Program-made: the position numbers and the translations under genes
Source: Patescibacteria group bacterium
GTDB lineage: Bacteria; Patescibacteriota; Microgenomatia; PFEM01; JAHIFH01
DNA: 64,000 nucleotides
NCBI GenBank assembly: GCA_035529375.1
Contig: DATKWU010000017.1
Location: forward strand, 2,579-66,578
Direction: 5' to 3'
Shown: one piece after another, positions 26,219 through 52,504 of the stretch
Position numbering within the stretch: position 1 is the first letter of the stretch
How the letters are laid out: each line of letters starts with the position of its first letter
The notes under the pieces: generated by a model
Database searches by the model: none
What the model saw: only the letters and a program-made list of their open reading frames with translations
What the model was told of the DNA's origin: nothing

Positions 26219-26230
26219 TGGTGAGCCCAA
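26215..26230 (+). repeat. 16-bp direct repeat ggcctggtgagcccaa (left copy, includes the first 4 nt of tRNA-Glu)
   Basis: An identical 16-mer recurs at 28365-28380. Confidence 0.6.
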
Positions 26231-26485
26231 GAGGGACTCCTACGAACACTTTTACCCTTATCTTCTAACTCTTTATCGTGGCTTTAATTATATCACAAAG
26301 GTTTATTCTTATCATATTGTCTAAGAAACCAAAAAATAAGAGATAGTATGAATGGAATCATTACTACTAAAACTTTATTCAATTGATTCAGAAAAATTGC
26401 CATCATTGAACAATGATAGTAACTTTTTTTAGTTTAAGGCAAATTAAATTTTTGCTAGTTCGTGATAAAATAAGGACAAAGTAAG

Positions 26486-27121
26486 ATGCCAAATAAGAAA
26501 GCGCCTGATCTCACTAAACGAACTAAACCACTTTTTGCCTTCTTTGATGTAGAAAACGTTCGAAACAGTGTAGAGGAATATGGATATATTGACCTTAACT
26601 ATCCTAAAATTATTGGCTGGTTGAAAAATAAAAGAAGTGTTAGTCGGATTTATCTCTATGCATCTGCAGAACCAGGAGATACAATTAAAAAGAAAAAGTA
26701 TTTAGATTTGCAGAAGATTCCTGGTTGTTATGTGTCCATTAAAAGGATTATGGCCTACAAGCAAAAACCATGGCCCCTCGAGACAATTTGCCCAAGTTGT
26801 CAACATTCATTTGTAAGAAAAATTTACATAAAAGATCACAAAAAGGGAAACTGCGATGCGGAGATGACTTTAGATATTGTTAGGTTTGGAGTTAGGAAAA
26901 AATATAGTGGAATTATTGTCTTTTCTGGTGACGGTGATTTTGCAAGAGTTTACGAATATGTTGCGGAAGAATTAAAAAAGCCCGTTATTCTTTTTGCACC
27001 AGATAAGGTGCCAGGTAAAAAAAGAACATCGTCGAGACTAAAGAAACTAGCGAATAACGGGACAATCAAACTAGAAAGCTTAAAGGGGTTGATGTTTCAT
27101 TATGGACAGAAAGAAGAATAA
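26486..27121 (+). CDS. NYN-domain (LabA/PIN-like) RNase family protein with an inserted CxxC...HxxxxxC zinc motif
   Basis: FFDVENV...YASAEPGD...GNCDAEMTLDIV...IIVFSGDGDF are the acidic residues typical of the NYN family. Confidence 0.65.
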   Translation: MPNKKAPDLTKRTKPLFAFFDVENVRNSVEEYGYIDLNYPKIIGWLKNKRSVSRIYLYASAEPGDTIKKKKYLDLQKIPGCYVSIKRIMAYKQKPWPLETICPSCQHSFVRKIYIKDHKKGNCDAEMTLDIVRFGVRKKYSGIIVFSGDGDFARVYEYVAEELKKPVILFAPDKVPGKKRTSSRLKKLANNGTIKLESLKGLMFHYGQKEE

Positions 27122-27280
27122 AAAAAGCCCCCCGAAGGCGACTTTTTTGATTGAGTGGATATACTTTATCACATTAAACTATCTTTGTCAACCTTATACC
27201 ACCTTATATTATCTTATCATATTTTGTGTTAGTTTAAATTGTATTAATGTCGTAAAAGTGCTAGAATTGGTTTCAAACAT

Positions 27281-27856
27281 ATGCCTCGAGAAATCATTTT
27301 CAGGTTAATGCCAGCCAATCTGAAGAGAAAACTAGAAAACTACCTTAATAAACCCTCAACTTCACGTCTCGAAGCCAGAAATAAACTTATTGTCAGTCTT
27401 TTTTATTATTGCGGTTTTAGAACATGGATGCTAACAGATCTAAAAAAGAAAAACTACGACCCAAAAAATAAAATGCTTTATTTTCGTCTTCGAACAAATT
27501 CTCTCAAAGAGAATAGTATACTTCTAGACGAATCTGTTTTTAAACTGATAGATTTTTTAACTAGATCATTTTCGAATCCAGAGTGGCCATTAATTATGAG
27601 TTTTAAAATTGATAGCCCGATAAATAAGCCACTATCTCCTCGCCAGATCCAAAGGGTTACCAAAAATATTTTGTTATCACTTGGTTTTAAAAAAAATATT
27701 CCACCAAGAATGTTGAGGCATAATGTTGGTATTAACTTAACCAAGGAAAAACTAAGACATAAATCGTTAAATAAATTAATTGGCAGAGTTTCTCCTTGGG
27801 TTTTTACAGAATACAAAAAAAGAGCGGGTAACTTTAAGAAAGTTGGGAAAATTTAA
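27281..27856 (+). CDS. Short tyrosine recombinase-like protein (catalytic domain only; no N-terminal core-binding domain)
   Basis: EARNKLIVSLFYYCGFRTWML resembles the box I Arg region. PRMLRHNVG resembles HxLRH. IGRVSPWVFTEY resembles LGHxxxxxTxxYTH with the Tyr. The product is only 191 aa. Confidence 0.5.
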   Translation: MPREIIFRLMPANLKRKLENYLNKPSTSRLEARNKLIVSLFYYCGFRTWMLTDLKKKNYDPKNKMLYFRLRTNSLKENSILLDESVFKLIDFLTRSFSNPEWPLIMSFKIDSPINKPLSPRQIQRVTKNILLSLGFKKNIPPRMLRHNVGINLTKEKLRHKSLNKLIGRVSPWVFTEYKKRAGNFKKVGKI

Positions 27857-28093
27857 AATTTAGAATTATTGGCTTATTGCCAATATTATTCAAAAAAAAG
27901 AGTAACTGTGTTCGATATTTGACGAAAAATTACATTGGGTAGGTTTTCATTATCGAACACTTAAATTAAATGAAATTTTTGAAGCGTTTAGGGCTGTAGA
28001 TAGGACTATTCAGAAGAAACCTTTTTCACAATTATCCACAGAAATAGTAAGATGTAAACCTGTCAGTAATCAGTTCGCACCAATTATTAAGCT

Positions 28094-28324
28094 TTATTGC
28101 TTTATACCACTGTCTATTACAACATCGCCTGTGTCTTCGTCAATATGACCCATAACTATTTCATATTCGCTATGCTCTACTATCCATTTAGCTCCTGGTG
28201 CTAATTCAGATAATTCAGGTGGAATACCCATTTCTTCTAGTTCTCTAGCATTTTGTTCAGCGCTAATTCTAGCAATTTCTCCTGTTGATTCCTCCGATGA
28301 CGTTGGTTTTATTGTTTCTGACAA
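28094..28324 (-). CDS. Hypothetical acidic protein (76 aa)
   Basis: ORF with no recognisable motif. Confidence 0.3.
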   Translation of the reverse strand: MSETIKPTSSEESTGEIARISAEQNARELEEMGIPPELSELAPGAKWIVEHSEYEIVMGHIDEDTGDVVIDSGIKQ

Positions 28325-28364
28325 TTTTATTCACCCCCTGTCAATTTTTCTTAATTCGCTTTTA

Positions 28365-28380
28365 GGCCTGGTGAGCCCAA
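28365..28380 (+). repeat. 16-bp direct repeat ggcctggtgagcccaa (right copy)
   Basis: Identical to 26215-26230. Confidence 0.6.
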
Positions 28381-28478
28381 CGTCCCGTGGGTGGAACACC
28401 TCTTCTCCAGTATTTTCAACACCTACGAGAAACTAAAAGAATTGGGCTTTACTTATTATAACGGAAAAGTCTCCGTAA

Positions 28479-28955
28479 TTGAAGTCGGTAATGAGGAGGA
28501 GAATGATTAAGTCTTCCTTGTACGACGAAAAAACCTTTTATCAAAAATTCATTGAAGATCTTTCCACCTGTCAAAAAGAGGTCATCATTGAGAGCCCCTT
28601 CATTTCAACGGAGAGAGCGAAAAGACTCTACCCGACTTTTGAAAAGTTAGTAAAACAAGGAGTCAGGGTTTACGTTTTGACCAGAGACCCGAGAGAACAT
28701 AGCCAGAGTTTCGAAGTCCAATCCGAGTTTGAAATTCGCAGATTTGAGGTTTTGGGGGTTCAGGTTTTCATCTGTACCGGCAACCATCACCGCAAGTTGG
28801 CTATTTTGGACCGGAAAATACTTTGGGAAGGAAGCTTGAACATTTTATCTCAAATTAAAAGCCGGGAAATAATGAGACGAATAGAGGGTAAAAAGTCAGC
28901 GTTAGAGATGTTTCGCTTCTTGAAATTAGGCAGGTTTATCAAAGAAGGGGTATAA
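28479..28955 (+). CDS. Phospholipase D / Nuc-family (HKD motif) nuclease
   Basis: GNHHRKLAILDRKILWEGSLNI is an HxK(x)4D(x)6GSxN motif. Confidence 0.7.
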   Translation: MKSVMRRRMIKSSLYDEKTFYQKFIEDLSTCQKEVIIESPFISTERAKRLYPTFEKLVKQGVRVYVLTRDPREHSQSFEVQSEFEIRRFEVLGVQVFICTGNHHRKLAILDRKILWEGSLNILSQIKSREIMRRIEGKKSALEMFRFLKLGRFIKEGV

Positions 28956-28956
28956 T

Positions 28957-29172
28957 ATGGAGGCAATGGCTAAAAAGAAAAGTCAGTTCGAAAAAGATAT
29001 CGAGAGCGTAATTAGGTTTTTAAAACAAACCGACCCCGAAAAGGCTACCCGGGCCAATGCCATCGAAATGCTGGGAAGCATGCAGACTTTGGCCCACCTG
29101 ATTGCCCATAAGGTAGTTGATAAGGAAAGGGGCGAAAAGCTTCGGAAAGAAATTAAGAAAAGGAAAAAGTAA
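28957..29172 (+). CDS. Small hypothetical protein (71 aa, helical)
   Basis: Tightly coupled ORF after the HKD nuclease. Confidence 0.3.
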   Translation: MEAMAKKKSQFEKDIESVIRFLKQTDPEKATRANAIEMLGSMQTLAHLIAHKVVDKERGEKLRKEIKKRKK

Positions 29173-29175
29173 TTC

Positions 29176-29388
29176 TTAATAAGGCAGGATTTTTGAAGAT
29201 TTTACTTTCAGAGCTTTAGTTACTCCAAAAAGTTTCTCTTGGGAAGGGTTGGCTTCGCCGCGCTCAATTCGGGCATAGTAATTGGGATGAATACCGGCTT
29301 TGTCGGCTACCTCCACCTGAGTCATTCCCGCTTTTAGCCTAGCCTCTTTAAGATTTTTTCCTAATTGTTTACGGATGATTTTAGTCAT
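29176..29388 (-). CDS. XRE-family helix-turn-helix transcriptional regulator
   Basis: LKEARLKAGMTQVEVADKAGIHPNYYARIERGEANPS is a Cro/C1-type HTH. Confidence 0.75.
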   Translation of the reverse strand: MTKIIRKQLGKNLKEARLKAGMTQVEVADKAGIHPNYYARIERGEANPSQEKLFGVTKALKVKSSKILPY

Positions 29389-29467
29389 TCCTGTCCATAT
29401 ATTAACAATATCCTATTGGGTTGTACAAGGTTTTTCTGGGTGACCAGTAAGGGAAAATAATTTTTGG

Positions 29468-29740
29468 CTAATCTATTCCCGCTCGTTGCTTTGCCTCTTC
29501 ATGGGACATTCCTTTGTCTCGCCAAAAATCGTACAACTGATCCAATAGCTCCGCTTCTCCTCGCTCGTATGCCTCAAGGCTTTCACCAGACAACTCCATT
29601 GACCCTGGAGGGCCGCCAGCTTCACCGGCAAATTTAACTATTCCTTCGTCGTCGATACCAATGCCACGCAAGGGAATTCGACGGACTCTTTGAGGCCGAG
29701 GGCCATGCCCTAGAGCTTGCTCAAAGTCTGGATTACTCAT
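29468..29740 (-). CDS. Hypothetical protein (90 aa, high GC)
   Basis: ORF between the M23 peptidase and XRE genes. Confidence 0.3.
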   Translation of the reverse strand: MSNPDFEQALGHGPRPQRVRRIPLRGIGIDDEGIVKFAGEAGGPPGSMELSGESLEAYERGEAELLDQLYDFWRDKGMSHEEAKQRAGID

Positions 29741-29843: not shown

Positions 29844-30455
29844 TTAACTTCCTCCCAAAAACACCCTCGGATTGACTGGTATGCCAAAGACGTTGATTTG
29901 AAAGTGCAAATGCGGTCCGGTTGCCCAACCGGTGCTGTCCTCGGTGCCGATGACATCGCCTGGTTTGACTTCCTGGCCCACTTCGACCCAGATGGTCTCC
30001 AAATGGGCGTAGATGGAAGCGAGATTATCGCCGTGATCGATGATGATGTGCTTGCCAAAACCCCAAGAGATTTGACCCGCGTAAACAACGGTTCCGGGCA
30101 TGAACGGGGTGATGAGGTCGCCTTTTTTGCCTTCGGGATTGGCAATGTCAATGCCGGTATGGAAAAGCTGCCAGCGGCTCGATTCGCCGAACTCGAGGGT
30201 AATGATTCCCGTCACCGGCCAGACGAAGGGGCCTTTGATGGTTTTGTAGACGCTGCCGTCAAACGGGTTTAAGATTTGAACCTCATTGGTGACTTCATTA
30301 ATCGCCACCAATCGTTCGGAAACAAAATCCAAACCCGTCCGGGTGAGAATGATCACCCCGATAAGGGGCATCAAGATGACCAGAAGAAAAGCCAGGAGGA
30401 CATAGAAGAACTCCTTTTTAAAAGAAAAAAAGGTCATTATTAAAAAGGGATTCAT
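29844..30455 (-). CDS. M23 family (LytM-like) peptidoglycan endopeptidase with an N-terminal TM anchor
   Basis: HTGIDIA...GTVVYAG...HLHFQ are the M23 motifs. It is the last gene of the T4SS operon. Confidence 0.85.
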   Translation of the reverse strand: MNPFLIMTFFSFKKEFFYVLLAFLLVILMPLIGVIILTRTGLDFVSERLVAINEVTNEVQILNPFDGSVYKTIKGPFVWPVTGIITLEFGESSRWQLFHTGIDIANPEGKKGDLITPFMPGTVVYAGQISWGFGKHIIIDHGDNLASIYAHLETIWVEVGQEVKPGDVIGTEDSTGWATGPHLHFQINVFGIPVNPRVFLGGS

Positions 30456-32212
30456 CGCAGGGAGTATCTTTCGGCCGGATCGGTCGTAATCAGGGGATGT
30501 TCTTTTTCCGAGGCAACCACTTTCAGGGCCACATGGTTTTGGTCGGCAATGACAATCGCCTCGCCCTTATCGCAGGTGAGCAGGAATTTCTGCTCGTATT
30601 CGCTTAGCTTGAACTCTTCGACCACTTTTTTAATGGTGGTCGTGTCCTGGCGCATTAGAATCCGCAGCGAGGCCTGGGAGGCAATCGCCTGACCGTATTC
30701 GTTGCCCAGGAAGTCGTTGGCCGCCTGGGAGATGATGTTGACACCCAGGTAGTATTTGCGCGCCCTTCTGGTCAAGCCGGCAATAAAGCGGGCGCTTTCC
30801 TCATGCTCCAAAAGAATCCAGGCCTCATCAATCACCAAGAGCCGTTTCTGGGGATTGGATTTGACCTGGTTGTAGACATAATTGGAAATGATCAGAATCA
30901 TGATTTGGCGCAGGGATTCGGGCAGGTCTTTGATATCAAAGACGATCAAGCGGTTGTCGAGCTTGATATTGGTTTGCTGGTTGAAGACATGAGCCAGCGA
31001 TCCCTTGACGTATTTCTCCAGCCGGACGCAGAGTTTTCTCTGCCGGTCTTTTTTCAAGGTTTGGTATAGGTCTTTCATCAACGGGTATCTTTGACCTTTT
31101 TTCCGGCCGTGGATTGCCCAGCCAAGGTTTTTGTAAGTTTTGACAATCGCTTTGTCAACAATCGCTTTTTCTTCCGAAGTCAAGCCTTCCACCATTAAGG
31201 AAACGATTTCCGTCAAATCCTGGATGTGCTCGACCAGGTTGTTGCCCTGGCCAAAGGAGCTGACTGAGAAGTCGAAAGGGTTGATTTTTTCCTTGGATTT
31301 GGCCGAGAGTTTGATGTAGGTGCCCTCTAAAGAGCGGGCAAGCTGCTGGTATTCCCGCTCCGGGTCAATGACGATCACTTTCGTCTTTTGAATCAGCTGG
31401 CGCAGGATTTCCACTTTGGCCGCGTAGCTTTTGCCGCAGCCGGATTGGGCAAAGACGATACTGTTGGCGTTATTGAGGCTGAAGCGGTCAATCATCACCA
31501 AGGAATTGTTGGAAAGATTGACCCCATACAAAATGCCGGTTTCCTGGACCAGTTCGGAGGAAGTAAAAGGAAAGGTTAAGGCCGTTGAGGAGCTGTCCAA
31601 ATTCCTTTTTTGGTCAAGGAGATTTTCCGCCCGGGGCAGGATGGATTGGAGGCCTTCAAGCTGCTGGAAAACCGCTGTTTTGGTGTAGAACAATCTCGTC
31701 GCCAGAACCGTCTCCGCCAGGGTGGTCAGCTTTTCCAATTCAACCAAAGAGTCGGCCGTCAGGTGGATATAGATGGAGACTTGGAAGAGCTTTTCCTGGC
31801 CCCGCAGGATTCTGTTTTTTAAATCAACCGCCGATTTTAAGGGGTCAAGCACTTCCGGGCCGATGATTTTTCCCTGCTGTTGGAGGACCCTTCGGGTTGA
31901 CTCCAATTCGGTAATCTTTCGATTAAGCTTGGGCAGGGAGATTTTCGAATCGATCTGTTCCAGGTGGTAAGCAATGTCGATGTCGTGGTTGAAATTAACC
32001 AGATTGTTCAGCCAGCCGGTAGTCGCCACGTAAGGATAACCGGAGACGAAGAGGGTCCGCAGGTATTTGCCGCCCAGATTGAGATAGTTTTGGTATTCCT
32101 TGAGGCCGTCATACGAGATTAAATCCACCTGGTCCTGTTCGCCGAACGAGAGCTCGATCGTTTTGAGACCTCGCTTTTTGTTTTTCTTAAAGTTTGGGAG
32201 TTTGAATAACAT
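30452..32212 (-). CDS. VirB4/TrbE/CagE-family conjugal transfer ATPase (ATPase portion)
   Basis: Walker A FAQSGCGKSYAAK and Walker B LLVIDEAW. The N-terminal YLRTLFVSGYPYVATTGWLNNL is typical of Gram-positive VirB4-like proteins. Confidence 0.8.
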   Translation of the reverse strand: MLFKLPNFKKNKKRGLKTIELSFGEQDQVDLISYDGLKEYQNYLNLGGKYLRTLFVSGYPYVATTGWLNNLVNFNHDIDIAYHLEQIDSKISLPKLNRKITELESTRRVLQQQGKIIGPEVLDPLKSAVDLKNRILRGQEKLFQVSIYIHLTADSLVELEKLTTLAETVLATRLFYTKTAVFQQLEGLQSILPRAENLLDQKRNLDSSSTALTFPFTSSELVQETGILYGVNLSNNSLVMIDRFSLNNANSIVFAQSGCGKSYAAKVEILRQLIQKTKVIVIDPEREYQQLARSLEGTYIKLSAKSKEKINPFDFSVSSFGQGNNLVEHIQDLTEIVSLMVEGLTSEEKAIVDKAIVKTYKNLGWAIHGRKKGQRYPLMKDLYQTLKKDRQRKLCVRLEKYVKGSLAHVFNQQTNIKLDNRLIVFDIKDLPESLRQIMILIISNYVYNQVKSNPQKRLLVIDEAWILLEHEESARFIAGLTRRARKYYLGVNIISQAANDFLGNEYGQAIASQASLRILMRQDTTTIKKVVEEFKLSEYEQKFLLTCDKGEAIVIADQNHVALKVVASEKEHPLITTDPAERYSLR

Positions 32213-32747
32213 CTTTGTTTTTAGATAAAAGCTGATAGGTTTTTTCTTTGATGGGCTGGGTTTTACAGACCCCGGGATTGTAAAAACTGTAAAAAAGCTC
32301 GAGAATTTCCAGGGTGTTGAGGCTTCTGGTTTTCATCCCCAGCCGCTCCAAGCCTTTGCTGATAATGTCCAGGCTGAGATTGATTTGTTCTTTAACCAAA
32401 TTGAAGTCGTTTTTTTCCGGTTCCGGCTCGTAGGGAATCACCAGGTAGAAGCGCCGGGAAAGGATTTTACTGCCCTTGACTAATTGCTTGACAAACTGGC
32501 CATAGTGCTTGATCTGCTGGCGGTAAAGCTTGTTGGTTTCGTGATTGTTTTTGTTGTTGAAAACCTCAAGATAGTTGTCAATCTCCACTTCGCGGACCCG
32601 AATCAAAATCTGGATGGGGCAAGGCAGGGCGTTGATGAAATTTTGGAAATTGTCAATCAAGGCGTCTTGCTCGGCCTCGCTTTTGAGCTCAAAGTTAATC
32701 GCCGAGGTTTCGACCACCACCCGATATTTATTTTCCGGCAGAACCAA
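32187..32747 (-). CDS. Putative N-terminal segment of VirB4, overlapping the downstream VirB4 ORF by 26 nt
   Basis: 186 + 586 aa is about 770 aa, a normal VirB4 length. The two ORFs overlap in different frames. Confidence 0.45.
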   Translation of the reverse strand: MVLPENKYRVVVETSAINFELKSEAEQDALIDNFQNFINALPCPIQILIRVREVEIDNYLEVFNNKNNHETNKLYRQQIKHYGQFVKQLVKGSKILSRRFYLVIPYEPEPEKNDFNLVKEQINLSLDIISKGLERLGMKTRSLNTLEILELFYSFYNPGVCKTQPIKEKTYQLLSKNKDVIQTPKL

Positions 32748-32803
32748 AATCCCGTCTCGGACTTCCTTGATTTTAATCTGTCTCCGGGAAGAGACTTTAT
32801 TGT

Positions 32804-33304
32804 TTAAAAGCGGTTTAATCTGAGCCTCCTTTTTTGACCGAACTTAATTAACATTTCGGTATTCCTGGCGTTAATCAGGTTTTCCAATTGAATCAAATTC
32901 AAAACTGATAAATGATTCTTTTTTTCTTTTTTGGCTGGGATTTGTTTATTGTTGACGGCGTTTTTGACTTCATTGTCCGGCTGGGGTTCTTCCTCCCGCA
33001 GATAATCATCGTTCTTGTCGAAGACAAAGAGATGGGGTCTCAAATAGTAAGCGACCAGTAAAATCAGCCAGTTTAAGACAATTCGTTCCTTGACCCTGAT
33101 GGCCAGGGTGAGGAAGATAACCAGGGAAAGAGCGATAAGAATAATCTTGTAAGGATTAAAGTACATCCTCTCCGGCAGAACGGCAAAAACAAAGACGCTG
33201 ATAAAAAGTGGGGCCAAAAGCAGGATTAGCTGGGTCAGGCTCAGGTTGGCGGCGATTTTATCCTCAACCGTGGTCACTTGAGCCGGGATGGGGGTCGTTT
33301 TCAT
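32804..33304 (-). CDS. Small two-TM membrane protein, VirB3-like by position
   Basis: 166 aa with two adjacent hydrophobic helices, lying between the VirB6-like and VirB4 genes. Confidence 0.35.
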   Translation of the reverse strand: MKTTPIPAQVTTVEDKIAANLSLTQLILLLAPLFISVFVFAVLPERMYFNPYKIILIALSLVIFLTLAIRVKERIVLNWLILLVAYYLRPHLFVFDKNDDYLREEEPQPDNEVKNAVNNKQIPAKKEKKNHLSVLNLIQLENLINARNTEMLIKFGQKRRLRLNRF

Positions 33305-34587: not shown

Positions 34588-34604
34588 TGTTTTTAACTGT
34601 TAAT

Positions 34605-43270: not shown

Positions 43271-43294
43271 TAATATCTATTATAATCCAGACAG

Positions 43295-44646: not shown

Positions 44647-44931
44647 TTGCCCTTGACTTCACTTCGCCAGCTGTGCGGTTGGACATCTATCGGAGGCAAG
44701 GCCTCCACAAAAAAAATTATTAAAATGACCATCACTCAAATCCAAACCGCTATTTTAGGCTCACCGGAGTTTGAAATAAAACCAGAAGCGAATTACAAGC
44801 CCAGGGTTTCCGCTGAGCACCTCTGCCTGCTTTGGCTTCTGAAGAGAAAGACCGGCAAGCCGATTACCAAGCTGGTGGCCGAGGCGATTGACCTTTATTT
44901 AGAAACGGTTGACTGGCCGGAAAGGAGGTGA
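44647..44931 (+). CDS. Small hypothetical protein upstream of the DUF2958 gene
   Basis: 94-aa ORF. The true start may lie internally. Confidence 0.3.
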   Translation: MPLTSLRQLCGWTSIGGKASTKKIIKMTITQIQTAILGSPEFEIKPEANYKPRVSAEHLCLLWLLKRKTGKPITKLVAEAIDLYLETVDWPERR

Positions 44932-44937
44932 GACTAG

Positions 44938-45270
44938 ATGGAGCTATTGACCAGAGAGCTTGAAAAAAGATTTGCCAAAGTTGGCCGCCAGGAAAACAAA
45001 GAGGACCCGTTGGTGATTGCCAAGTTTTTTAATCCGGCCGGAGCCGGCAGCTGGTACGCCACCGAATACGACCCGAGAAAGAAAATGTTTTTCGGGTATG
45101 TGTCACTCTATGGCGACGGGAACGACGATTGGGGCTATTTTTCCTTAAAAGAACTGGAAGATTTCGAAAGCCCGTATGGAACCGGCATTGAAAGGGATCT
45201 TGAATTTGGGGAATGCCGGTCAAGTAAGATTGTCACCAAAGTTTGGCCAAATATTGAAATCGCAGAATAA
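44938..45270 (+). CDS. DUF2958-family protein (plasmid/ICE-associated)
   Basis: MELLTRELEKRF...DPLVIAKFFNPAGAGSWYATEYDP...FGYVSL...GYFSLKELE is the DUF2958 consensus pattern. Confidence 0.6.
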   Translation: MELLTRELEKRFAKVGRQENKEDPLVIAKFFNPAGAGSWYATEYDPRKKMFFGYVSLYGDGNDDWGYFSLKELEDFESPYGTGIERDLEFGECRSSKIVTKVWPNIEIAE

Positions 45271-45290
45271 GAAAGACTTCTCTCGTTAAA

Positions 45291-45569
45291 TTACGGCATA
45301 AATGGTTTTTTCCAGGTTGAGGGTTCAAACATGAGGTCAACAATACGAGGATCAACGTCAAGGGTGTCAGCGAGTTGATTTCTGAACTTGGGATAATCCT
45401 CGTCAGTTGTCAGAATAACGTATAATTGTGTTATGAGAGAAAGGGTTAAACAGGCAATAGCAAAAAGGTTTTTGGATTTTTCCATGCGCGGCAGTCTCGA
45501 TGAATACCTTAATCCTACCCAAGAACTTAGCAACTTTGGAAAATGTTTGGTTAAAAAAGTAGTCCCCAT
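45291..45569 (-). pseudogene. Gene fragment duplicating the 3' end of the 46060-46806 gene
   Basis: Its C-terminal FRNQLADTLDVDPRIVDLMFEPST matches RDQLANALDVDPRIVDLMFEPST of the longer gene. About 75 nt are nearly identical (45305-45380 versus 46090-46165). Confidence 0.4.
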
Positions 45570-45921
45570 TGAGAATCTAGACCGAGAGCTAGTAATACTT
45601 GACTGGCCCTGGCTGGAGAAAGAGCATCAAGTCGACATGGCAATCTATTCAAAGAAAGGAAAATACCAAGAAGGCAGTCCTGTTCAAGTCATTGAGGCAA
45701 GAAGTGATTTTGATAAAGAAATAGAGGGATTCACCTCGACATTAAAAAATCCACTGACGGGAAACTACACTACTGTTACCCATATTTATTTAGCCCGGCC
45801 AATGGAAGGACAAAAGGATTTACTAACAGATATGCAATTAAAACCAGTAAATTCCCAACTAGTTTCTGGGTTAGACCCGGTAATAGTCGGAAGTCTTGAA
45901 GGCTTTCCTGGCTATACTTAA
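45433..45921 (+). CDS. Hypothetical protein (162 aa)
   Basis: This ORF overlaps the fragment on the opposite strand. It is uncertain which of the two is real. Confidence 0.3.
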   Translation: MRERVKQAIAKRFLDFSMRGSLDEYLNPTQELSNFGKCLVKKVVPIENLDRELVILDWPWLEKEHQVDMAIYSKKGKYQEGSPVQVIEARSDFDKEIEGFTSTLKNPLTGNYTTVTHIYLARPMEGQKDLLTDMQLKPVNSQLVSGLDPVIVGSLEGFPGYT

Positions 45922-46059
45922 TCCTCCGCAGAGACTGTGATTACCTCATTCAGGCCTTAAAATTATAATTCCCTCATCTCTCCTACCCTAGAATGTCGAA
46001 GTAAGACTAAGGCCTGTAACTTCATTCTCAGGTGTCAATAGGATCCCACCTAGAGGGTT

Positions 46060-46806
46060 TTAGCTAAAATTTGGATGCTGGAAAAGAAAATAGGTTGAGG
46101 GTTCAAACATGAGGTCGACAATACGTGGGTCAACATCAAGAGCGTTCGCTAGCTGATCCCTCTTTTTAGGGTAAATCTCATCAAGAGAAACGAGACCGTT
46201 TTCCAAAAAAGCGATGAAGCCGGGTTCAACATCAAGGTAGGCGGCGGCAACCTCTGGGGCTATCCCTTGACCCTGACGAAGAGCTTTAATAATCACACCT
46301 GCCTTACATACTAGTTCAGCTTCCTGCCGTTCCGCTTCGCTACCTTGCAACTTTTCGTACAGATTTCCAGAGCGTTCCACAAGCTCATCATTCCATTCGC
46401 GAGTGAAACCGTCTTCTTCACCGCCTGCTAAGAGAATTTCAAAAAGATCGGATCCTATGCCAAGTTCCAGAAGCTCCACTACTTCCTCTGGCTCATATAC
46501 CCTTTCTGAAATAGCAATTTCGCTTAATTCTAAAAGTTTCGTTTGGTCTAAAAAACTCGCTTCCTTAATTGAGTCCAGAAGTTGAATGGCTGTTTCTTGA
46601 TCGGAAGAAGCAATGATTCCTAAAAGGCTGGATTCTCCGCTAGACTGGGCTTCATCCATTTCACGCACCCTACTTTTTAGCTTCGATAATATTGGCTGCT
46701 TTTCGGCATTAATTTTTTGCTGCTCCAGGCGCCGCCCTTGCCAGACTTCGGCAATTTCTTTTGGCAGTTCGGCAGGAGGTCTCAATTCTTCGGGATTGAT
46801 AGCCAT
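46060..46806 (-). CDS. Acidic hypothetical protein (248 aa)
   Basis: Glu/Leu-rich helical ORF lying between the conjugation-module genes. Confidence 0.45.
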   Translation of the reverse strand: MAINPEELRPPAELPKEIAEVWQGRRLEQQKINAEKQPILSKLKSRVREMDEAQSSGESSLLGIIASSDQETAIQLLDSIKEASFLDQTKLLELSEIAISERVYEPEEVVELLELGIGSDLFEILLAGGEEDGFTREWNDELVERSGNLYEKLQGSEAERQEAELVCKAGVIIKALRQGQGIAPEVAAAYLDVEPGFIAFLENGLVSLDEIYPKKRDQLANALDVDPRIVDLMFEPSTYFLFQHPNFS

Positions 46807-46867: not shown

Positions 46868-47647
46868 TTAAATAATTGCCTGCCAAACCTTCTTGCCTAC
46901 TCCCTCTTTTTTTATTTTCCCTGCCGTGGTTAAAAAGAACTGAATTTCGTAATTTTCTTCATCTTCCTGGGTTTCCCTGATGAATTTGTTTAAATATGCT
47001 TGCATGTATCTGTCCGAGCAGACTAGGAGAATGGTCGGGAAGGGGTGGCGGGTGGTTTTCTCCCAAAAATTGGATTGATAATAATTAAAAAATCTAAAAA
47101 GACGATGCCGCAAGGCATAACGGGGCGTTTTCCTGACAAACATTTCCAAAAAATATCTTTTGGTTTCACCCTGCGGCTCTTTGATGACGAAATACAAATC
47201 CGGCAGGGGTTCGGGGAGATAATCGTGTTTAGCCAAATCGGTCCGGTGGAAAAATTGGAGTTCGGCCTTGTCTTCCAAGCATAACTTGACCAGATGAAAA
47301 TAGATATCAGCTAGGAAAAGGCAGTGGTTGATGAATTTTCTTGAGCGTAAGTTTTCGCGATAGATTCGGTTAAGCAAGGCCTGGTTAATTTCTGGTTCTT
47401 TTCTCAAAACACCAGCCGCCTTTGACTTCAGGTAATAAATGGCTGGCTGGATGTTTTCTCCAAATTTTCGGGAGTAGATTCGACCAAGATACTTTTTCTC
47501 GGTTAATTCTTTCAGCCAGGCATTGATTCGCCCGGGGTTTTGGTGGTTGAGGAATTTTTGAAGATGATGACGATTGAGAAAGCGGAAGCGATATAAAAGA
47601 GTGAGGATTTCTATTTGCTTTGAGGTTGGTTTTTTTGTTTGATTCAT
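46868..47647 (-). CDS. Replication-relaxation family-like protein (putative plasmid/ICE replication or relaxase accessory factor)
   Basis: The N-terminal wHTH-like KQIEILTLLYRFRFLNRHHLQKFL is typical of the replication-relaxation family. 259 aa. Confidence 0.45.
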   Translation of the reverse strand: MNQTKKPTSKQIEILTLLYRFRFLNRHHLQKFLNHQNPGRINAWLKELTEKKYLGRIYSRKFGENIQPAIYYLKSKAAGVLRKEPEINQALLNRIYRENLRSRKFINHCLFLADIYFHLVKLCLEDKAELQFFHRTDLAKHDYLPEPLPDLYFVIKEPQGETKRYFLEMFVRKTPRYALRHRLFRFFNYYQSNFWEKTTRHPFPTILLVCSDRYMQAYLNKFIRETQEDEENYEIQFFLTTAGKIKKEGVGKKVWQAII

Positions 47648-47791: not shown

Positions 47792-50443
47792 TCAGGGCAG
47801 GATGTTCCCCGTTTGAGTCTCAGTGATTAATTTCGGTTGTAACTTTTTGTTTATCTCTTTGCTTTTCACTGCTTGTTTTTTATAAGGCAAGGTATAAAGT
47901 TTTCTTGACCGCTCGATGATTTGATTGGTTCTTTGATTGTCGAGGCTGGCAACCACGGGCGTGGTCACTCCAGAAAAAGGCTCTTCCGGATTAAGGGCGC
48001 TGATTTTGATATAGAAGTTAAACGAAGGCAGACTGGCAATTTCCCCTTTTTCGACGTAAGGCGAGAATTGGGGCAGAATCAATTTTTCGTCTTCTGGGTT
48101 GGCGGTTCGGAAGCAAATCACCGTCCCGGTGTTGGCCAGAGTAACGTTGACCAACGACCTGTCTTCAATCTGAGAAGTGGTCTGGTGAGCCATAATGGCA
48201 TTCAGGCGGTATTTTCTGGCTTCTGACAGGATTTCCGCAAAAGCGGTGGTGGCAAAATTCTGAAACTCATCAACGTAAAGATAAAAGTCCTTTCTCTCCT
48301 TGTCGGTTACTCTGGCTCTTTTTAAAGCCGCCAGCTGGATTTTGGTCATGATGAGGATCCCGAAAACCTCGGAAGAGTCTTCACCAATCCTGCCCTTGGA
48401 AACGTTGCAGAGCAGGATTTTTCCGGAAGATAAAATCTCGTCAAAGTTGATGCTGGATTTTTCCTGCTCTAGAATTCTTTTGGCGGTCGGCGAAAAGAGG
48501 AAGCGGCCGATCTTATTGGTAATCGGCGAAATCATTTTCACCTTCTGGTAATCACCGGCTTTGGCAAACTCATAGCGCCAAAAATCTTTCAAGTTTTCAT
48601 CATCCAAACTTCGGACAACCCTTTTGCGGTAAGGAGTGTTAATCAGCAGTTTGTAAACCGTAAACAGGGTTGGGTTTTCGGTGGCAAAAGCGGTGTGGAT
48701 GGTGTTTCTTAGGATATATTCCATTCTCGGTCCGGAATACTTTTCCGAATAGATTTTGTGAAACAGGGAAATAATGCTTTCCGTCAAAAATTCTTTTTCC
48801 CGGAGGGCATCATCTTCGTTCAAATCGGGTGTTAGCTCCAACAGGTTGAGACCAATCGGGTGGCTGACGTCATCCGGGTTAAAATAAATAACGTCGTTGA
48901 CCCTTTCCTGGGGAATGGCAGGTAAAATTTGGTCGATTAAATCTCCGTGAGGGTCAATCACGCATAATCCCTTTTTGTTTTTAATATCCTGCAAAATCAT
49001 CGACAAAAGCAAAGTCGATTTGCCGGTGCCGGTGGCCCCGAGGATATAAATATGCCTTCTTCTTTCGTCTGCGGTTAAACCGATTTTAGTGTCCGTCCCG
49101 CCATAAGTGTTTTTGGCAAAGACAACATCAAAGCCATCTGCCTTTTTTAAGGAAAGCGGCGCGGGCAGTTGCTTGCTGTGCTGTTTGACCAAATCTTCGG
49201 TTTTAGTCTTGATTGTAAAGGGCAAATGGTAAATATCGGCTACTTCTGAGGCTGACAGAACCGAGTTGCCCAATAAACCAAGTAATCTGTTTCTAAACAA
49301 ATAAGCTTTGGTTTGTTTAATTAAACCGTGTTTAAAGTTGAAAAAAGAGACCAACGACTGGTAATGGGAATTATTAAACGAAGAAAGGGCGGAAACAAAG
49401 CCCTTAATCCGTTTATTTTGCTTGGGGCGATTTTTACTGACAACCAGCAGACGCAAAGAAGTCTTAAAAAGCTGCTGGTCTAGCTTGTCTTTGATCATCT
49501 CTTCCAGTTCCTTTTGGTAAGCGTCGCCTGCTCTGCTGTCATGTTTTAATCCCTCAAGATGCAAAAGCGGCCCTTCCTTGCCGCCAGTGACTAAAAATAT
49601 CAAAAACCCAAAAGGAATAAGGAATAAATAAAGAATAAATCTCAGCAATAATTTAAATGAGCTGATTGCTTGCTGGTTTAATTTCAAGTTTTTTAAACCG
49701 GTTAGCAAGTCGCTTCTGGTGGAAATCAGACCGGTGATTGTTCTTGCCTGTTTTAAATCGCGTCTGTTGGCCGGAGAAGCAACGATTTGAAAAGAAATTA
49801 GTTCGTCTCTGTCCAGCTTGGTCATACTGCCGGTAATATAAGCAATGGGGTCGTGTTCTTGAAGCAGTCTTTGATTTTTTAAGGGATAAGCAAAGTGGTT
49901 TGATTGTTTAAAGCTAGCAATCTTAAATTGGTTGTTTTTAAATTTTTTTGGCAAATAGTCGCCAACCCGATTGATACTAATTCCCGGAAGGTAGGAAAGA
50001 AGACTTTTTTTAACCAATTCTGCGTCTTCATCGTTAATTCTCAGCAGATACCTGATACCCTCTTTTTTGGTGGAAACAATTTCAAAGGCATAGTTTTTGT
50101 AGCTATCCATCAGTTTGTAAAATAGGGATCGCTGTCTGGCCAAACCATGAATAAGATTAAAAAGCTGCTGGGTGGAAAGCGGGCTTTGCAGGGTTTCGGT
50201 TAATGGTCTAATCTCGAACAAGACAGACTTTTGCTTTAGCTCTAGTCTAATCAGCAGGAATCTTAATAAGGCATAGATAGTCAGAAGGAGGATGAAGGTT
50301 GAGGCTAAGATAATAAGTAAGTTGCCAAGGAAGGAAACTGGTAGGAGTCTTAGGATTTTATTAAAGGAAAAGTCGATTTGAAGAAAAGAACTAAAAACAA
50401 GGCTGTTCTTAAAAAAATCTACTGATTCACCAAAAATCCTCAT
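47792..50443 (-). CDS. Type IV coupling protein (VirD4/TraG/TraD/TcpA-like, FtsK-HerA superfamily ATPase) with an N-terminal membrane domain
   Basis: N-terminal TM helices, Walker A IYILGATGTGKSTLL and Walker B LYVDEFQNF, 883 aa. Confidence 0.7.
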   Translation of the reverse strand: MRIFGESVDFFKNSLVFSSFLQIDFSFNKILRLLPVSFLGNLLIILASTFILLLTIYALLRFLLIRLELKQKSVLFEIRPLTETLQSPLSTQQLFNLIHGLARQRSLFYKLMDSYKNYAFEIVSTKKEGIRYLLRINDEDAELVKKSLLSYLPGISINRVGDYLPKKFKNNQFKIASFKQSNHFAYPLKNQRLLQEHDPIAYITGSMTKLDRDELISFQIVASPANRRDLKQARTITGLISTRSDLLTGLKNLKLNQQAISSFKLLLRFILYLFLIPFGFLIFLVTGGKEGPLLHLEGLKHDSRAGDAYQKELEEMIKDKLDQQLFKTSLRLLVVSKNRPKQNKRIKGFVSALSSFNNSHYQSLVSFFNFKHGLIKQTKAYLFRNRLLGLLGNSVLSASEVADIYHLPFTIKTKTEDLVKQHSKQLPAPLSLKKADGFDVVFAKNTYGGTDTKIGLTADERRRHIYILGATGTGKSTLLLSMILQDIKNKKGLCVIDPHGDLIDQILPAIPQERVNDVIYFNPDDVSHPIGLNLLELTPDLNEDDALREKEFLTESIISLFHKIYSEKYSGPRMEYILRNTIHTAFATENPTLFTVYKLLINTPYRKRVVRSLDDENLKDFWRYEFAKAGDYQKVKMISPITNKIGRFLFSPTAKRILEQEKSSINFDEILSSGKILLCNVSKGRIGEDSSEVFGILIMTKIQLAALKRARVTDKERKDFYLYVDEFQNFATTAFAEILSEARKYRLNAIMAHQTTSQIEDRSLVNVTLANTGTVICFRTANPEDEKLILPQFSPYVEKGEIASLPSFNFYIKISALNPEEPFSGVTTPVVASLDNQRTNQIIERSRKLYTLPYKKQAVKSKEINKKLQPKLITETQTGNILP

Positions 50444-50535
50444 AATTTATCCCTCAGGCAGGATGATTATGAGGCAGGTTGCTTATTAGTATACTACATC
50501 TAACAAGGAATCTAAACCCCTTTTCTTTTTACTAC

Positions 50536-50580
50536 TTGACAAGCTGTTTTACCCTTGTTATACTATCCATATATGGATAG
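50536..50580 (+). promoter_or_regulatory. Promoter (TTGACA, 17 nt, TATACT) overlapped by a perfect 18-bp palindrome ctatccatatatggatag (likely operator)
   Basis: ttgaca at 50536-50541 and tatact at 50559-50564. The palindrome at 50563-50580 is perfectly self-complementary. Confidence 0.45.
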
Positions 50581-50629
50581 TTAATAAACTAAAGATATAA
50601 GATTCGAGGCTAGGTTAAGAGTAAAATCC

Positions 50630-50764
50630 ATGAGTAAAGAGCAATTTTCAAGAAATAACAAGAAGGAAAAGGGTAAAAAAGAGGACCGGATGAAGATATT
50701 TGCCAACTTCCTCGTCGACAGAATTATCGAAGAGCAGAATAAGGCTAAATTAATTGGGGAATAG
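50630..50764 (+). CDS. Small basic protein (44 aa) between the promoter/operator and the serine recombinase gene
   Basis: MSKEQFSRNNKKEKGKKEDRMKIFANFLVDRIIEEQNKAKLIGE. It is below the ORF-track cutoff. Confidence 0.3.
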   Translation: MSKEQFSRNNKKEKGKKEDRMKIFANFLVDRIIEEQNKAKLIGE

Positions 50765-50768
50765 TCAA

Positions 50769-52493
50769 ATGGGTAACCTGCCAAAACCTGAAAATGCCGT
50801 TGCCGCGATCAGAATCTCTTCTTTAAAACAAGGGCTTCAGGGCGATTCACCGGAAGACCAAAAAGAGCAAATCGAAAGGTTTGCGGAAAACCACAATATC
50901 AAGATTAAAAAGTTCTTCATCTTCATGGAGAGCGCTTCTAAAGAAGAGCAGCCGGTCCAGGAAGCGATTGATTACTGTAAAAAGCCAAAAAACGACATCC
51001 AGCTATTCATTGTCAAATCGATTGACCGCTTTACCAGAGGCGGGTCTTATCTCTATGACCATCTTAAAATGCAGCTGGTTAAATATGAGGTCAAACTGGT
51101 TGATATTTACGGGGTTATCAGCAGTCAGGAAGTAAACACTTTAGAGCATTTAAACATCAAATACGATTGGAGCGTCTACAACCCCACTAAAAAAACGGAA
51201 ATTTTGGAAGCAGAGCGGGCCAAAGACGAAATGAGAGATATCATGACCAGGATGATTGGCGCCGAGATTAGGTACGTGAGAATGGGCTACCGGGTGCGAC
51301 AAGCCCCCTTTGGCTATGTCAATGAGAAAGTGGAAACCGCTCATGGCAAGAGAGTCATCTTAAAACCCCATCCTAAAGAGTCAAAATGGATTATCAGAAT
51401 GTTTGAGCTTCGGGCCAACAGCAGCTTAAGCGATCAGGAAATTGTTGACAAGCTAAACAAGTTGGGCTTTAAAACCAGGAGGCGCTATCGCCGCGACCCT
51501 AAAGACAGAACCAAAATAATCGGCCAGACGGGAGAGTGCCCGCTGTCTTTAAAAGCTCTCTGGAAATATATTCGAAGTCCTATTTATGCCGGCGTCAACA
51601 TTGAAAAATGGACTAAGGACAAACCAGTAAAAGCCAAATTTAAGGGTTTAGTATCGGTTGAGACTTTTAATAAAGCTAATAAAGGCAAGGTTATCATTTC
51701 CGAAGAAAACGGCCAGATAGAATTCTGGAAGAAAAAGCCCCCCGACCATTTGCTTTACAAATCGGTTAGAAATCCCAAATTTCCCTACAAAAGATATGTT
51801 TTGTGCCCGATTTGCGAAAAACCTTTATATGGCAGCGCTTCCCGGGGAAGGCTTGGCAAATATTATCCTGCCTATCATTGTAATAAGCGGGGCCATTATT
51901 TCCGGGTGCCAAAGCAGGAATTTGAAGAAACGATTGCTGGTTTTGTCAGCAATTTGGGCATCAAACCAAAGTGCGTCAAAGACTTGAAAAAGTATGTCAT
52001 TGATTTATGGCAGAAAAAAATGGAAAACAGTCAAAAGGACAATAAGCAGATAGACCGGAAAATCAAAGAACTGAAATCTTTAGCCGAGATAACCGCTGAT
52101 AAGATTAAATACCTTGAGTCTGCTACCGCCATTAAGTACATGGAAGAAGAGCTGGTTAAAACCGAAAAAGAGATTAGAAACCTCCAAGCAGGCAAAATAG
52201 AAAACAAAGAAAAAGACGTCAATATGGAACGAGTAATGGAGTTTGTCGGTTACTTTCTGGAACACTTGGAAGAACTGATTCTCGGAGGCTCAAATCCTCT
52301 GAAAAGAGCTGATTATTTTGGGCTTATCTTTGAGAAACCGCCTACCTACGAAGAATTGGTTTCTGGAACACCAAAATTGGCTCCATTTATCGAACTAAAA
52401 GACGATTTTGGCTCCTCTTTAGTCCCAATGTGTGAGCCCGGAAGGAATCGAACCTTCGACACCCTGCTTAAAAGGCAGGTGCTCTACCGCTGA
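50769..52493 (+). CDS. Large serine recombinase (resolvase/invertase catalytic domain, recombinase domain, zinc ribbon, coiled coil)
   Basis: N-terminal AVAAIRISSLKQ...SIDRFTRG is the serine-recombinase catalytic region. A zinc ribbon CPICEKP...YHCNKRGHY and a C-terminal coiled coil follow. The ORF in the track starts at TTG 50754. The 3' end runs 61 nt into tRNA-Lys on the opposite strand. Confidence 0.8.
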   Translation: MGNLPKPENAVAAIRISSLKQGLQGDSPEDQKEQIERFAENHNIKIKKFFIFMESASKEEQPVQEAIDYCKKPKNDIQLFIVKSIDRFTRGGSYLYDHLKMQLVKYEVKLVDIYGVISSQEVNTLEHLNIKYDWSVYNPTKKTEILEAERAKDEMRDIMTRMIGAEIRYVRMGYRVRQAPFGYVNEKVETAHGKRVILKPHPKESKWIIRMFELRANSSLSDQEIVDKLNKLGFKTRRRYRRDPKDRTKIIGQTGECPLSLKALWKYIRSPIYAGVNIEKWTKDKPVKAKFKGLVSVETFNKANKGKVIISEENGQIEFWKKKPPDHLLYKSVRNPKFPYKRYVLCPICEKPLYGSASRGRLGKYYPAYHCNKRGHYFRVPKQEFEETIAGFVSNLGIKPKCVKDLKKYVIDLWQKKMENSQKDNKQIDRKIKELKSLAEITADKIKYLESATAIKYMEEELVKTEKEIRNLQAGKIENKEKDVNMERVMEFVGYFLEHLEELILGGSNPLKRADYFGLIFEKPPTYEELVSGTPKLAPFIELKDDFGSSLVPMCEPGRNRTFDTLLKRQVLYR

Positions 52494-52504
52494 GCTACGG
52501 GCCC
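52433..52504 (-). tRNA. tRNA-Lys (anticodon UUU)
   Basis: The reverse complement GGGCCCGTAGCTCAGCGGTAGAGCACCTGCCTTTTAAGCAGGGTGTCGAAGGTTCGATTCCTTCCGGGCTCA folds as a cloverleaf with T loop TTCGATT and anticodon loop CTTTTAA. Confidence 0.85.

Follow-up and report, generated by a model that had tools for sequence, protein, structure and literature searches.

The window analysed here comprises 64,000 nucleotides of contig DATKWU010000017.1 from a Patescibacteria group bacterium, and its central part probably carries an integrative and conjugative element (ICE) that was integrated at a tRNA-Lys gene by its own serine recombinase, with a second, small element in tandem. We give this reading a probability of about three in four. 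The main element spans positions 28379-52431 (24,053 bp) and combines several of the features by which an ICE is recognised, namely a discrete insertion, an integrase gene at one end, virB4 together with mating-pair genes, and a gene for a coupling protein. The original prediction, made from the letters of the window, had proposed an ICE or an integrated plasmid in this place; it is supported by our data and refined by the empty sites of relatives, the repeats at the junctions, a relaxase candidate and the presence of two elements.

Insertion at the tRNA-Lys gene and its boundaries

The tRNA genes were called over the whole window with ARAGORN and Rfam, and exactly two were found, both on the minus strand and 26.2 kb apart: tRNA-Glu(UUC) at 26145-26218, the 5' end of which forms the left part of the uninterrupted attachment site (attB), and an intact tRNA-Lys(UUU) at 52432-52504 (74 bits with Rfam), which constitutes the right junction (attR). 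The coordinates given by both programs bear out the bounds proposed initially, with tRNA-Glu on the left and tRNA-Lys on the right. To the right of tRNA-Lys lie ruvC, a small open reading frame (ORF) with an EF-Tu domain, a metallopeptidase-like ORF, holA, PGM, PGI and PPDK, and rplS and the RidA gene are found farther out on the left side.

Relatives were collected through a RuvC scan with one genome per species, which gave four close ones (L005 to L008). In L008, whose RuvC is 82% identical, tRNA-Glu (9796-9869) abuts tRNA-Lys (9870-9944) 56 nt upstream of ruvC, and their strand matches that of the window; this arrangement is the empty site. In L006 and L007, homologues of the window genes at 16310-16945 and 17003-17284 are followed directly by tRNA-Glu, tRNA-Lys and ruvC, and the stretch corresponding to 17.3-52.5 kb is wholly absent. 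The closest relative, L005, with flank proteins 91-98% identical to those of the window, has a contig that begins in a 75-nt homologue of window positions 26221-26295 (91% identity) with different cargo beside it, then about 830 bp of unrelated DNA and tRNA-Lys, which makes a site content of about 0.9 kb. The same site is consequently found empty (L008, and L006 and L007 with a differently oriented tRNA pair), filled with about 0.9 kb (L005) or filled with 26.2 kb (window). The comparison with related genomes that had been advised therefore gave an empty site, and the situation named at the outset as contrary to an element, a block of conserved synteny with no attachment repeats and no variation in presence, is not the one observed.

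The alignment of the empty site, the three junctions of the window and L005 left one invariant block, GTGAGCCC. This core 8-mer is the 3' acceptor end of tRNA-Lys, and its three copies in the 64 kb, all on the plus strand, fall exactly at the left (26221-26228), middle (28371-28378) and right (52432-52439) junctions, where direct repeats of the tRNA-Lys 3' end had been expected. The left and middle junctions share in addition an exact 16-mer, GGCCTGGTGAGCCCAA, found in two copies on the plus strand, 2,150 bp apart, and in 0 of 100 shuffles: the first copy (26215-26230) consists of the tRNA-Glu 5' GGCC and the displaced tRNA-Lys 3' end with its CCA, and the second (28365-28380) is the left junction (attL) of the ICE. 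The empty site reads GGGGCC TG GTGAGCCC GGGAGGGATCGAACC, that is, the tRNA-Glu 5' end and then the tRNA-Lys 3' end with an encoded CCA. In the window, the left junction is made of the native left side, the core and AAGAGGGACTCC, the middle junction of TAGGCCTG, the core and AACGTCCCGTGG, and the right junction of CCCAATGT, the core and the native body of the tRNA. At attR, element sequence stands where the empty site has the encoded CCA, and joining the left half of attL with the right half of attR reproduces attB. In L038 and L116 the core is followed by the same arm as at the middle junction of the window. The 26-52 kb region, read before as a single element, is thus, on the simplest reading, an insertion made of two tandem elements of 2.15 kb and 24 kb, and not of one. 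Both orders of arrival of the small element and the ICE are compatible with the junctions, and the assignment of a recombinase to each junction is tentative. Extra or degenerate tRNA genes at the junctions were also considered and rejected: at E <= 5, Rfam reported tRNA-Glu alone over 23.9-28.6 kb, so the repeats are fragments and not genes.

The recombinase gene and its attachment site

The gene of the large serine recombinase closes the element on the right (50754-52493, plus strand, likely start ATG at 50769) and encodes 579 amino acids (aa) in its integrated form. The protein has the catalytic domain PF00239 (36 bits, cutoff 23.3), with the motif AIRISSLKQ that contains the catalytic IRISS near the N-terminus, and the Recombinase domain PF07508 (31.2 bits, cutoff 21.1); by sequence inspection, a CxxC...HC zinc ribbon, CPICEKPLYGSASRGRLGKYYPAYHC, on which the Pfam zinc-ribbon model is silent, is followed by a K/E-rich heptad-like stretch (coiled coil). 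The ORF is antisense to tRNA-Lys, as the first reading of the window had noticed, with an overlap of 62 nt, its stop (52491-52493) lies within the tRNA gene, and the last 17 residues of the integrated form, GRNRTFDTLLKRQVLYR, are encoded by the antisense strand of tRNA-Lys.

When the right end of the element (to 52439) is joined with its left end (from 28379), the ORF reaches 605 aa instead of 579. After the core-encoded CEP, the reconstructed tail is NVPWVEHLFSSIFNTYEKLKELGFTYYNGKVSVIEVGNEEEND, 43 residues long (NVPWVEHLFSS...NEEEND). It is encoded by the P' arm at 28379-28510 (plus strand), a segment that joins the frame of 50754-52439 only once the element is excised, and its stop (28508-28510) overlaps the start of a gene for a phospholipase D-type (PLD) nuclease. 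The recombinase gene is therefore split in the window. Two contigs, L090 and L049, show a recombinase gene contiguous with its tail and free of tRNA sequence, as expected for the unintegrated attachment site (attP); in L090 the order is recombinase, GGTGACCCC (a tRNA-Glu end), a tail with the same FEH motif, then directly PLD and helix-turn-helix (HTH) genes. Both of these contigs come from relatives and not from the element of the window. The detached frame of 45 codons (the core codons Glu-Pro and the 43 codons of the tail) is conserved as protein among the window, L038 and L116, with pairwise differences at the first, second and third codon positions of 5/3/15, 4/2/23 and 5/5/21 (binomial p = 2e-3, 5e-7 and 9e-5, respectively), and the other two reading frames of the segment contain stops. 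These codon patterns indicate that the detached tail is under purifying selection; since its frame meets a start codon only after excision, it can be argued that the excised form is made and matters. The overlap of ORF and tRNA is an attachment site inside the recombinase gene and not an incidental one, and we infer that the exchange of tails could control the direction or the activity of the enzyme.

The same arrangement is found throughout the recombinase family. A scan of metagenomes with the recombinase gave 259 relatives, and the best 80 (60-95% identical) were fetched. Where the ORF ends within the contig (73 loci), it overlaps a tRNA gene of the opposite strand in 67 cases, by 14-189 nt, the targets being tRNA-Glu (29 loci), tRNA-Lys (19), tRNA-Arg (6), tRNA-Gln (6), tRNA-Asp (3), tRNA-Ser (3) and tRNA-Ile (1), seven species across which the recombinases are 60-97% identical. 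Recombinase genes that are 96.9% identical in nucleotides lie at tRNA-Lys(UUU) in L065 and at tRNA-Glu(UUC) in L072, and genes that are 95.8% identical lie at tRNA-Lys in L080 and at tRNA-Glu(CUC) in L084. Downstream, the flanks of L080 and L084, the only pair comparable there, have no BLAST similarity over the approximately 260 nt of L084. We take these pairs as a sign of recent movement and, indirectly, of conjugative transfer. Recent movement is also indicated by element proteins that resemble each other across genomes more than core proteins do: in L070 the recombinase is 66% and the T4CP (the coupling protein) 57% identical, against 46% for RuvC and 34% for holA. A phage origin was considered and rejected, neither a relative of the recombinase nor the reconstructed attP being found in IMG/VR.

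From these data we propose the following sequence of events. Two mobile elements would have inserted in tandem (26219-52431) at the 3' end of tRNA-Lys, which abuts tRNA-Glu when uninterrupted. The serine recombinase would have joined attP, within the 3' end of its own gene, to the acceptor end of tRNA-Lys via GTGAGCCC, an integration that would leave the tRNA intact and split the recombinase gene: the 43 codons past the core and the stop would have been moved 24 kb to the other end (28379-28510), 17 tRNA-antisense codons taking their place. Excision would restore the 605-aa enzyme, translationally coupled to the PLD nuclease gene. A nuclease of PF13814/MOBC type would nick the element, a VirD4-like coupling protein would pass the DNA on, and a monoderm-type type IV secretion system (T4SS) with a VirB2-like pilin, VirB6, VirB3, a split VirB4 and an M23 hydrolase would export it. 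The middle 9 kb is defence-like cargo, and the 2.15-kb element, with a NYN protein and a short tyrosine recombinase, occupies the same site, between the 16-nt repeats. The insertion with its boundaries, the gene set, the targeting of tRNA genes across the family and the split of the recombinase gene are observed; excision at present, nicking and transfer by conjugation are inferred.

Putative transfer genes and the weighing of the alternatives

Profile searches with Pfam, NCBIfam and PADLOC confirm nearly all of the genes read initially from the sequence (pilin, VirB6-like, VirB3-like, VirB4 and M23 proteins, HKD nuclease, XRE regulator, DUF2958, coupling protein and recombinase). The mating-pair-formation module occupies 29844-34934 on the minus strand and consists of the M23 wall hydrolase (29844-30455), the VirB4 ATPase of 586 aa (30452-32212; NCBIfam CD1110 family NF045971, 350.7 bits against a cutoff of 325), a TrsD-like ORF of 186 aa corresponding to the N-domain of VirB4 (32187-32747; TrsD-family match, E = 1.3e-4), PrgI/VirB3 (32804-33304; PrgI at 26.5 bits, just below the cutoff of 27), a protein with a pilin domain and a TrbL/VirB6-like part (33301-34587; TrbL_4 and T4SS_pilin matches) and the VirB2-like pilin (34605-34934). 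The same gene order is found in L052, L116, L117 and L118. The two VirB4 ORFs overlap by 26 nt, and the split is common to L052, L116 and L117, which makes it a family trait and not a frameshift. VirB4 matches the CD1110 and Mycoplasma ICE VirB4 models and has more than 7,900 relatives, the best 120 of which are 71-98% identical and mostly from Patescibacteria. The type IV coupling protein (T4CP), a VirD4/TraD-like ATPase of 883 aa (47792-50443, minus strand), is recognised by the Pfam models TrwB_AAD_bind (35.3 bits, cutoff 20.5), TraG-D_C (23.7, cutoff 22) and T4SS-DNA_transf (23.7, cutoff 20.1), its NCBIfam equivalog matches (TraD, CD1115) being all below cutoff.

Beside the T4CP gene, positions 46868-47647 (minus strand) encode a candidate relaxase of the MOBC class. 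Its match to PF13814 (Replic_Relax) covers 177 of the 191 profile positions (E = 5.8e-12, 46.5 bits, cutoff 25.3), and nearly all of the 120 homologues listed carry this domain as well. The family is given as Rel_PF13814/MobC by Coluzzi et al. (PMC5357655), and MOBC relaxases form a restriction-endonuclease-like class typified by TraX of pAD1 (PMC12857230). The structure model of the protein predicts an N-terminal winged helix and a C-terminal restriction-endonuclease fold of PD-(D/E)XK type, and D113, D136, P148-D149 and E/D167 are conserved in 32 sequences. We call it a candidate and not a proven relaxase, given that the lysine of the (D/E)xK motif, two residues past E167, is not conserved in these 32 sequences. 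The initial statement that no relaxase was clearly identified consequently holds in that none is proven, and is amended by a PF13814/MOBC candidate with the expected fold.

The neighbourhood of the recombinase has a conserved order in the family: DUF2958, PF13814 protein, coupling protein, recombinase, tRNA. When the 32 loci that extend 6 kb or more upstream are considered, the T4CP gene is present in 29, the PF13814 gene in 28 and both in 26, and DUF2958 is found upstream of the candidate relaxase in 17. In L052 the genes for M23, VirB4, VirB4-N, VirB3, VirB6, pilin, PF13814 protein, T4CP and recombinase are packed into 11.7 kb beside tRNA-Glu; the segment corresponding to window 35-44 kb is missing from this compact form, which identifies it as added cargo. 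The order in L117 is T4CP, PF13814, DUF2958, Fic, Fic and T4SS, and the recombinase would fall past the edge of the locus. In L116 and L118 the T4SS block ends with HTH, PLD and the same element arm.

Several observations weigh against the proposed reading. The identity shared at the junctions is 8 bp, longer than a serine recombinase requires, and no recombination directionality factor was identified. In a tblastn search against 72,556 plasmids the relaxase candidate had no match, and between its gene and the T4CP gene no origin of transfer (oriT) was identified, the hairpin examined there folding no better than shuffles (z = -1.3). In the source population, all five contigs with an identical RuvC show the same element arrangement, contigs with an identical left-flank protein likewise carry the element at the same place, and neither a circular junction nor an empty site for this element was found among the exact-match contigs. 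Polymorphism of the population in these exact-match contigs was considered and rejected: all of them carry the element, and the short contig L004 merely breaks within tRNA-Glu. Finally, most Patescibacteria T4SS are reported to lack a detectable relaxase, and the T4SS is reported as essential for the epibiotic growth of Saccharibacteria (PMC12102498, PMC12857230).

On these last points rests an alternative that we regard as unlikely, although most of the remaining probability falls to it, in which a mobile island is moved by the serine recombinase and spreads otherwise, its T4SS serving the bacterium in host attachment, exchange or DNA uptake. The VirB2-like pilins, unusual in monoderm conjugation systems, the lack of an oriT between the relaxase and T4CP genes and the missing catalytic lysine all fit such a role. 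It accounts less well for the coupling protein and PF13814 nuclease that stand together beside the recombinase in 26 of the 32 related loci, and that L052 and L117 unite with the T4SS in a single compact block, or for the near-identical recombinase genes at different tRNAs in different contigs. The divergence of the genes points in the same direction: VirB4 is 71-78% identical in contigs assigned to several groups of the candidate phyla radiation (CPR; Levybacteria, Microgenomates), and RuvC is about 46% identical in the loci carrying core genes as well. The caveat attached to the original prediction, that CPR T4SS may have other functions and that mobility is not certain, nevertheless holds for self-transfer by conjugation.

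We consider it quite improbable that the insertion is a decayed, immobile remnant of an ICE or integrated plasmid that has become fixed in the lineage. The uniform presence in the source population would agree with this, as would the VirB4 in two ORFs and the existence of deletion derivatives, such as the 5.8-kb L038 with an M23 gene fused next to the recombinase. Every gene of the modules is intact, however, the split of VirB4 corresponds to the TrsD-like ORF described for Patescibacteria and recurs in relatives, the detached tail of the recombinase appears to be maintained by purifying selection, and the closest relative, L005, lacks the element. As for an ordinary conserved chromosomal region with coincidental tRNAs and repeats, for which one could cite the housekeeping genes of the right flank and, farther off, of the left, it can practically be dismissed in view of the empty site in L008, the absence from L005, L006 and L007, the restriction of the core 8-mer to the junctions and the antisense-tRNA arrangement of the whole family.

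The ICE integrated at tRNA-Lys can be compared with systems already described. The Patescibacteria clade of T4SS reported by Quinonero-Coronel et al. in 2025 (PMC12102498) is related to MPF-FATA and has the same set of components as the window, with VirB2-like pilins, VirB6, VirB3, a TrsD-like ORF and VirB4, the T4CP gene lying mostly distant from virB4; that survey counted just 109 relaxases, 58 of them MOBC, with 39 near t4cp. Its loci were treated as chromosomal and mostly relaxase-less, whereas the T4SS of the window lies in an insertion with attachment junctions, a large serine recombinase, a T4CP and a MOBC candidate. The reading of these systems as chromosomal and co-opted for epibiosis was adopted because relaxases and nearby coupling proteins were rarely detected (PMC12102498); in the window the cargo (about 9 kb) lies between virB4 and t4cp and parts the T4SS from the MOB module by about 16 kb, which may explain how searches with a fixed window missed the link. 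The words integrase, recombinase and tRNA are absent from the text of that paper, and in the literature searched we found no account of these recombinases, nor of ICEs inserted at tRNA genes in CPR bacteria; the element family is large and apparently undescribed.

Firmicutes ICEs at rumA (Tn1549 / Tn5252 / vanG-type, ICE_Spy2096_rumA, C. difficile CTn5) have a single large serine integrase and resemble the window element in its position at the element end, in short direct repeats that lie in the target gene and within the integrase gene, one copy in each, and in an exchange of 3' ends that alters the C-terminus of the integrase (PMC4701971). They also share a T4SS of monoderm type that includes VirB4 and a coupling protein, and the VirB4 of the window passes the CD1110 model. 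Unlike these ICEs, which target a protein gene, the family of the window uses antisense tRNA 3' ends of seven species and leaves the tRNA intact, and the window element has a PF13814/MOBC relaxase candidate, VirB2-like pilins and a CPR host. Its recombinase has no significant sequence match to any solved recombinase structure. With the MOBC relaxases TraX of pAD1 and MobC of CloDF13, the candidate shares PF13814, a predicted restriction-endonuclease-like domain and a position beside the coupling-protein gene; it differs from them in its lack of tblastn similarity to plasmid-borne members and in the unconserved (D/E)xK lysine. Islands and ICEs moved by tyrosine integrases at tRNA genes (e.g., streptococcal ones at tRNA-Lys) likewise insert at the 3' end of the gene and rebuild the tRNA, leave a displaced 3' fragment at the distant junction and can accumulate in tandem at one tRNA, and the main element of the window differs from them by its serine recombinase, the 8-bp segment of identity and the recombinase ORF across the site.

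The empty site, the exact junctions and the relatives, which number in the hundreds, make the window a clear case of such a T4SS within an integrating element, and a defined element makes the question of whether CPR bacteria conjugate directly testable. The recombinase family, with attP within its own gene and seven tRNA species as targets, forms a natural retargeting series that may help to study the choice of target and the direction of serine integrases. A broader reading, which we hold to be doubtful, is that many of the Patescibacteria T4SS loci described as chromosomal and relaxase-less are on this family of serine-recombinase ICEs, that the integrated and excised tails form a built-in switch of direction or activity, and that the 2-kb element and the gene cassettes described below are recombinase-dependent hitchers forming an integron-like array. 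If this were true, the mobility of the T4SS would have been masked by inserted cargo and by the divergence of the MOBC-type relaxases, and the cell would make an enzyme with a tRNA-antisense tail when the element is integrated and one with the native 43-residue tail when it is excised.

Accessory genes, cassette array and flanks

The left end of the ICE carries an accessory block (28479-29740) with the PLD/HKD nuclease (PLDc_2, ORF at 28479-28955, also delimited as 28503-28955, plus strand), a 71-aa ORF, the XRE HTH regulator (29176-29388, minus strand) and a 90-aa ORF (29468-29740, minus strand). This block is also found at the end of the T4SS cluster in L116, L118 and L038. The cargo segment (35106-44453, mixed strands) begins with a 276-aa ORF and contains a LexA/S24-N6-methyltransferase fusion (35933-37750, minus strand), PDC-S39 (DUF7380/DUF4209, 37799-39604), a HEPN protein (39594-40373), an SNase plus Excalibur protein (40506-41351), a Schlafen AlbA_2/PDC-S19 protein (41518-42672) and three hypothetical ORFs (42701-44453). 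The restriction-modification and defence cluster proposed for this segment stands as regards the methyltransferase and the candidate defence genes (PDC-S39, HEPN, SNase, Schlafen/PDC-S19), and not as regards restriction, no endonuclease partner of the methyltransferase being detected with Pfam or PADLOC. The fusion, of 605 aa, joins a LexA DNA-binding domain, an S24 self-cleaving peptidase and an Eco57I/MmeI-like N6 adenine methyltransferase, and possibly represents an SOS-like, damage-responsive methyltransferase among the cargo of the ICE. On the MOB side, a conserved accessory block (44647-46806) has a weak ribbon-helix-helix-like ORF (44647-44931), DUF2958 (44938-45270) and, beside the relaxase candidate, hypothetical paralogues on the minus strand (45291-45569 and 46060-46806), the 3' ends of which share a 92-nt stretch with 77% identity (45314-45405 and 46092-46183).

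Two sets of relatives of the integration end deserve mention. The contigs L036 (2813-4783) and L037 (367-2337) are 93% identical in nucleotides to window 50535-52505, a stretch that comprises the recombinase gene with 219 nt upstream of it and the tRNA; everything else differs, with other upstream genes and a tRNA-Lys(CUU) followed by tRNA-Arg, His and Arg. This comparison, a further sign of recent movement, indicates that elements exchange the integration module as a whole. In L038 (118-6012), the 5.8-kb derivative shares its left arm with the ICE and reads PLD, HTH, 2.7 kb of other DNA, and then M23 with the recombinase and tRNA-Lys(CUU) directly behind; VirB4 through T4CP are missing, which makes it a non-conjugative or decayed relative.

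The small tandem element (26229-28370, plus strand, 2,150-bp period) lies between the exact 16-nt repeats and encodes a NYN-domain protein (26486-27121), a 68-aa ORF (27102-27308), a short tyrosine recombinase of 191 aa (27281-27856; Pfam, with an XerA/integron-integrase-like NCBIfam match below cutoff) and a 76-aa ORF on the minus strand (28094-28324). In the tyrosine recombinase, several canonical catalytic positions appear to be substituted (RMLRH, GR...Y). The enzyme is very rare: with a threshold of E <= 1e-5, only four homologues turned up in 5.8 billion proteins, every one of them either from the source population or on a contig shorter than 2 kb, and they are uninformative except for that of L120, which adjoins the 3' end of a tRNA-Glu.

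Core genes had been said to flank the region on both sides; this is right for ruvC, holA and the glycolysis genes, and on the left for rplS and RidA farther out, the immediate left (17.3-26.1 kb) being a variable cassette array. This array, at 17300-26218 (about 9 kb), consists mostly of single-gene units (RidA, MazG-like, HIT, a block of hypothetical ORFs, 2-hydroxyacid dehydrogenase, MBL-fold/Apyc1-like), each followed by a repeat of about 100 nt (17877-18013, 18431-18539, 18973-19086, 24016-24141, 25131-25233). The repeat combines a terminator hairpin with the tRNA-Glu 3' end GTGACCCCGAGGGGA and a segment similar to the tRNA-Glu/tRNA-Lys junction, and its last copy is the real tRNA-Glu. Six such units with different genes are found in L008 (3800-9870) and none in L006 or L007. 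By its layout the array looks like an integron-like capture of genes at a tRNA 3' end. A pattern, core-N15-(G/A)AACAC(C/T)T, was recognised by inspection on all element-side arms, those of the ICE (28379-28410), the 2-kb element (26229-26260), L090 (1590-1640) and the tRNA-Glu cassette repeats, which suggests that one type of recombinase recognises all of them and that the serine recombinase may carry the small units along as hitchers. Within the minus-strand hypothetical ORFs at 19133-23865, a 30-nt sequence occurs three times (20041-20070, 21785-21814 and 22865-22894), and the Logan contig L004 breaks at one copy.

The tRNA pair itself varies in orientation: in L006 (9830-9978) and L007 (9185-9336) Glu precedes Lys on the ruvC strand, and in L008 (9796-9944) and the window Lys precedes Glu on the other strand. 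A simple inversion cannot explain this difference, and the pair was therefore possibly rearranged or replaced by element activity. On the right flank, a PF18894 'putative phage metallopeptidase' gene (53327-53710) between ruvC and holA is kept in the same place in L005 to L008, and is hence part of the core flank, outside the element.

The GC content is 0.44-0.50 at 29-35 kb (T4SS block) and 0.41-0.45 at 44-50 kb; the neighbouring 25-28 kb and small-element region has 0.32-0.39 and the right flank 0.35-0.41. Of the patches of elevated GC noticed originally, the T4SS block alone clearly stands out, since the right flank overlaps the lower of the two elevated ranges. A second GC-rich patch is found at 9000-13000 (0.45-0.52, against approximately 0.38 in the surrounding window), with a 282-aa ORF devoid of a Pfam match and a 785-aa fusion of CbiQ with a double ABC ATPase. 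The protein at the corresponding position in L006 is just 27% identical to this fusion, so the patch is perhaps another replaced or acquired segment.

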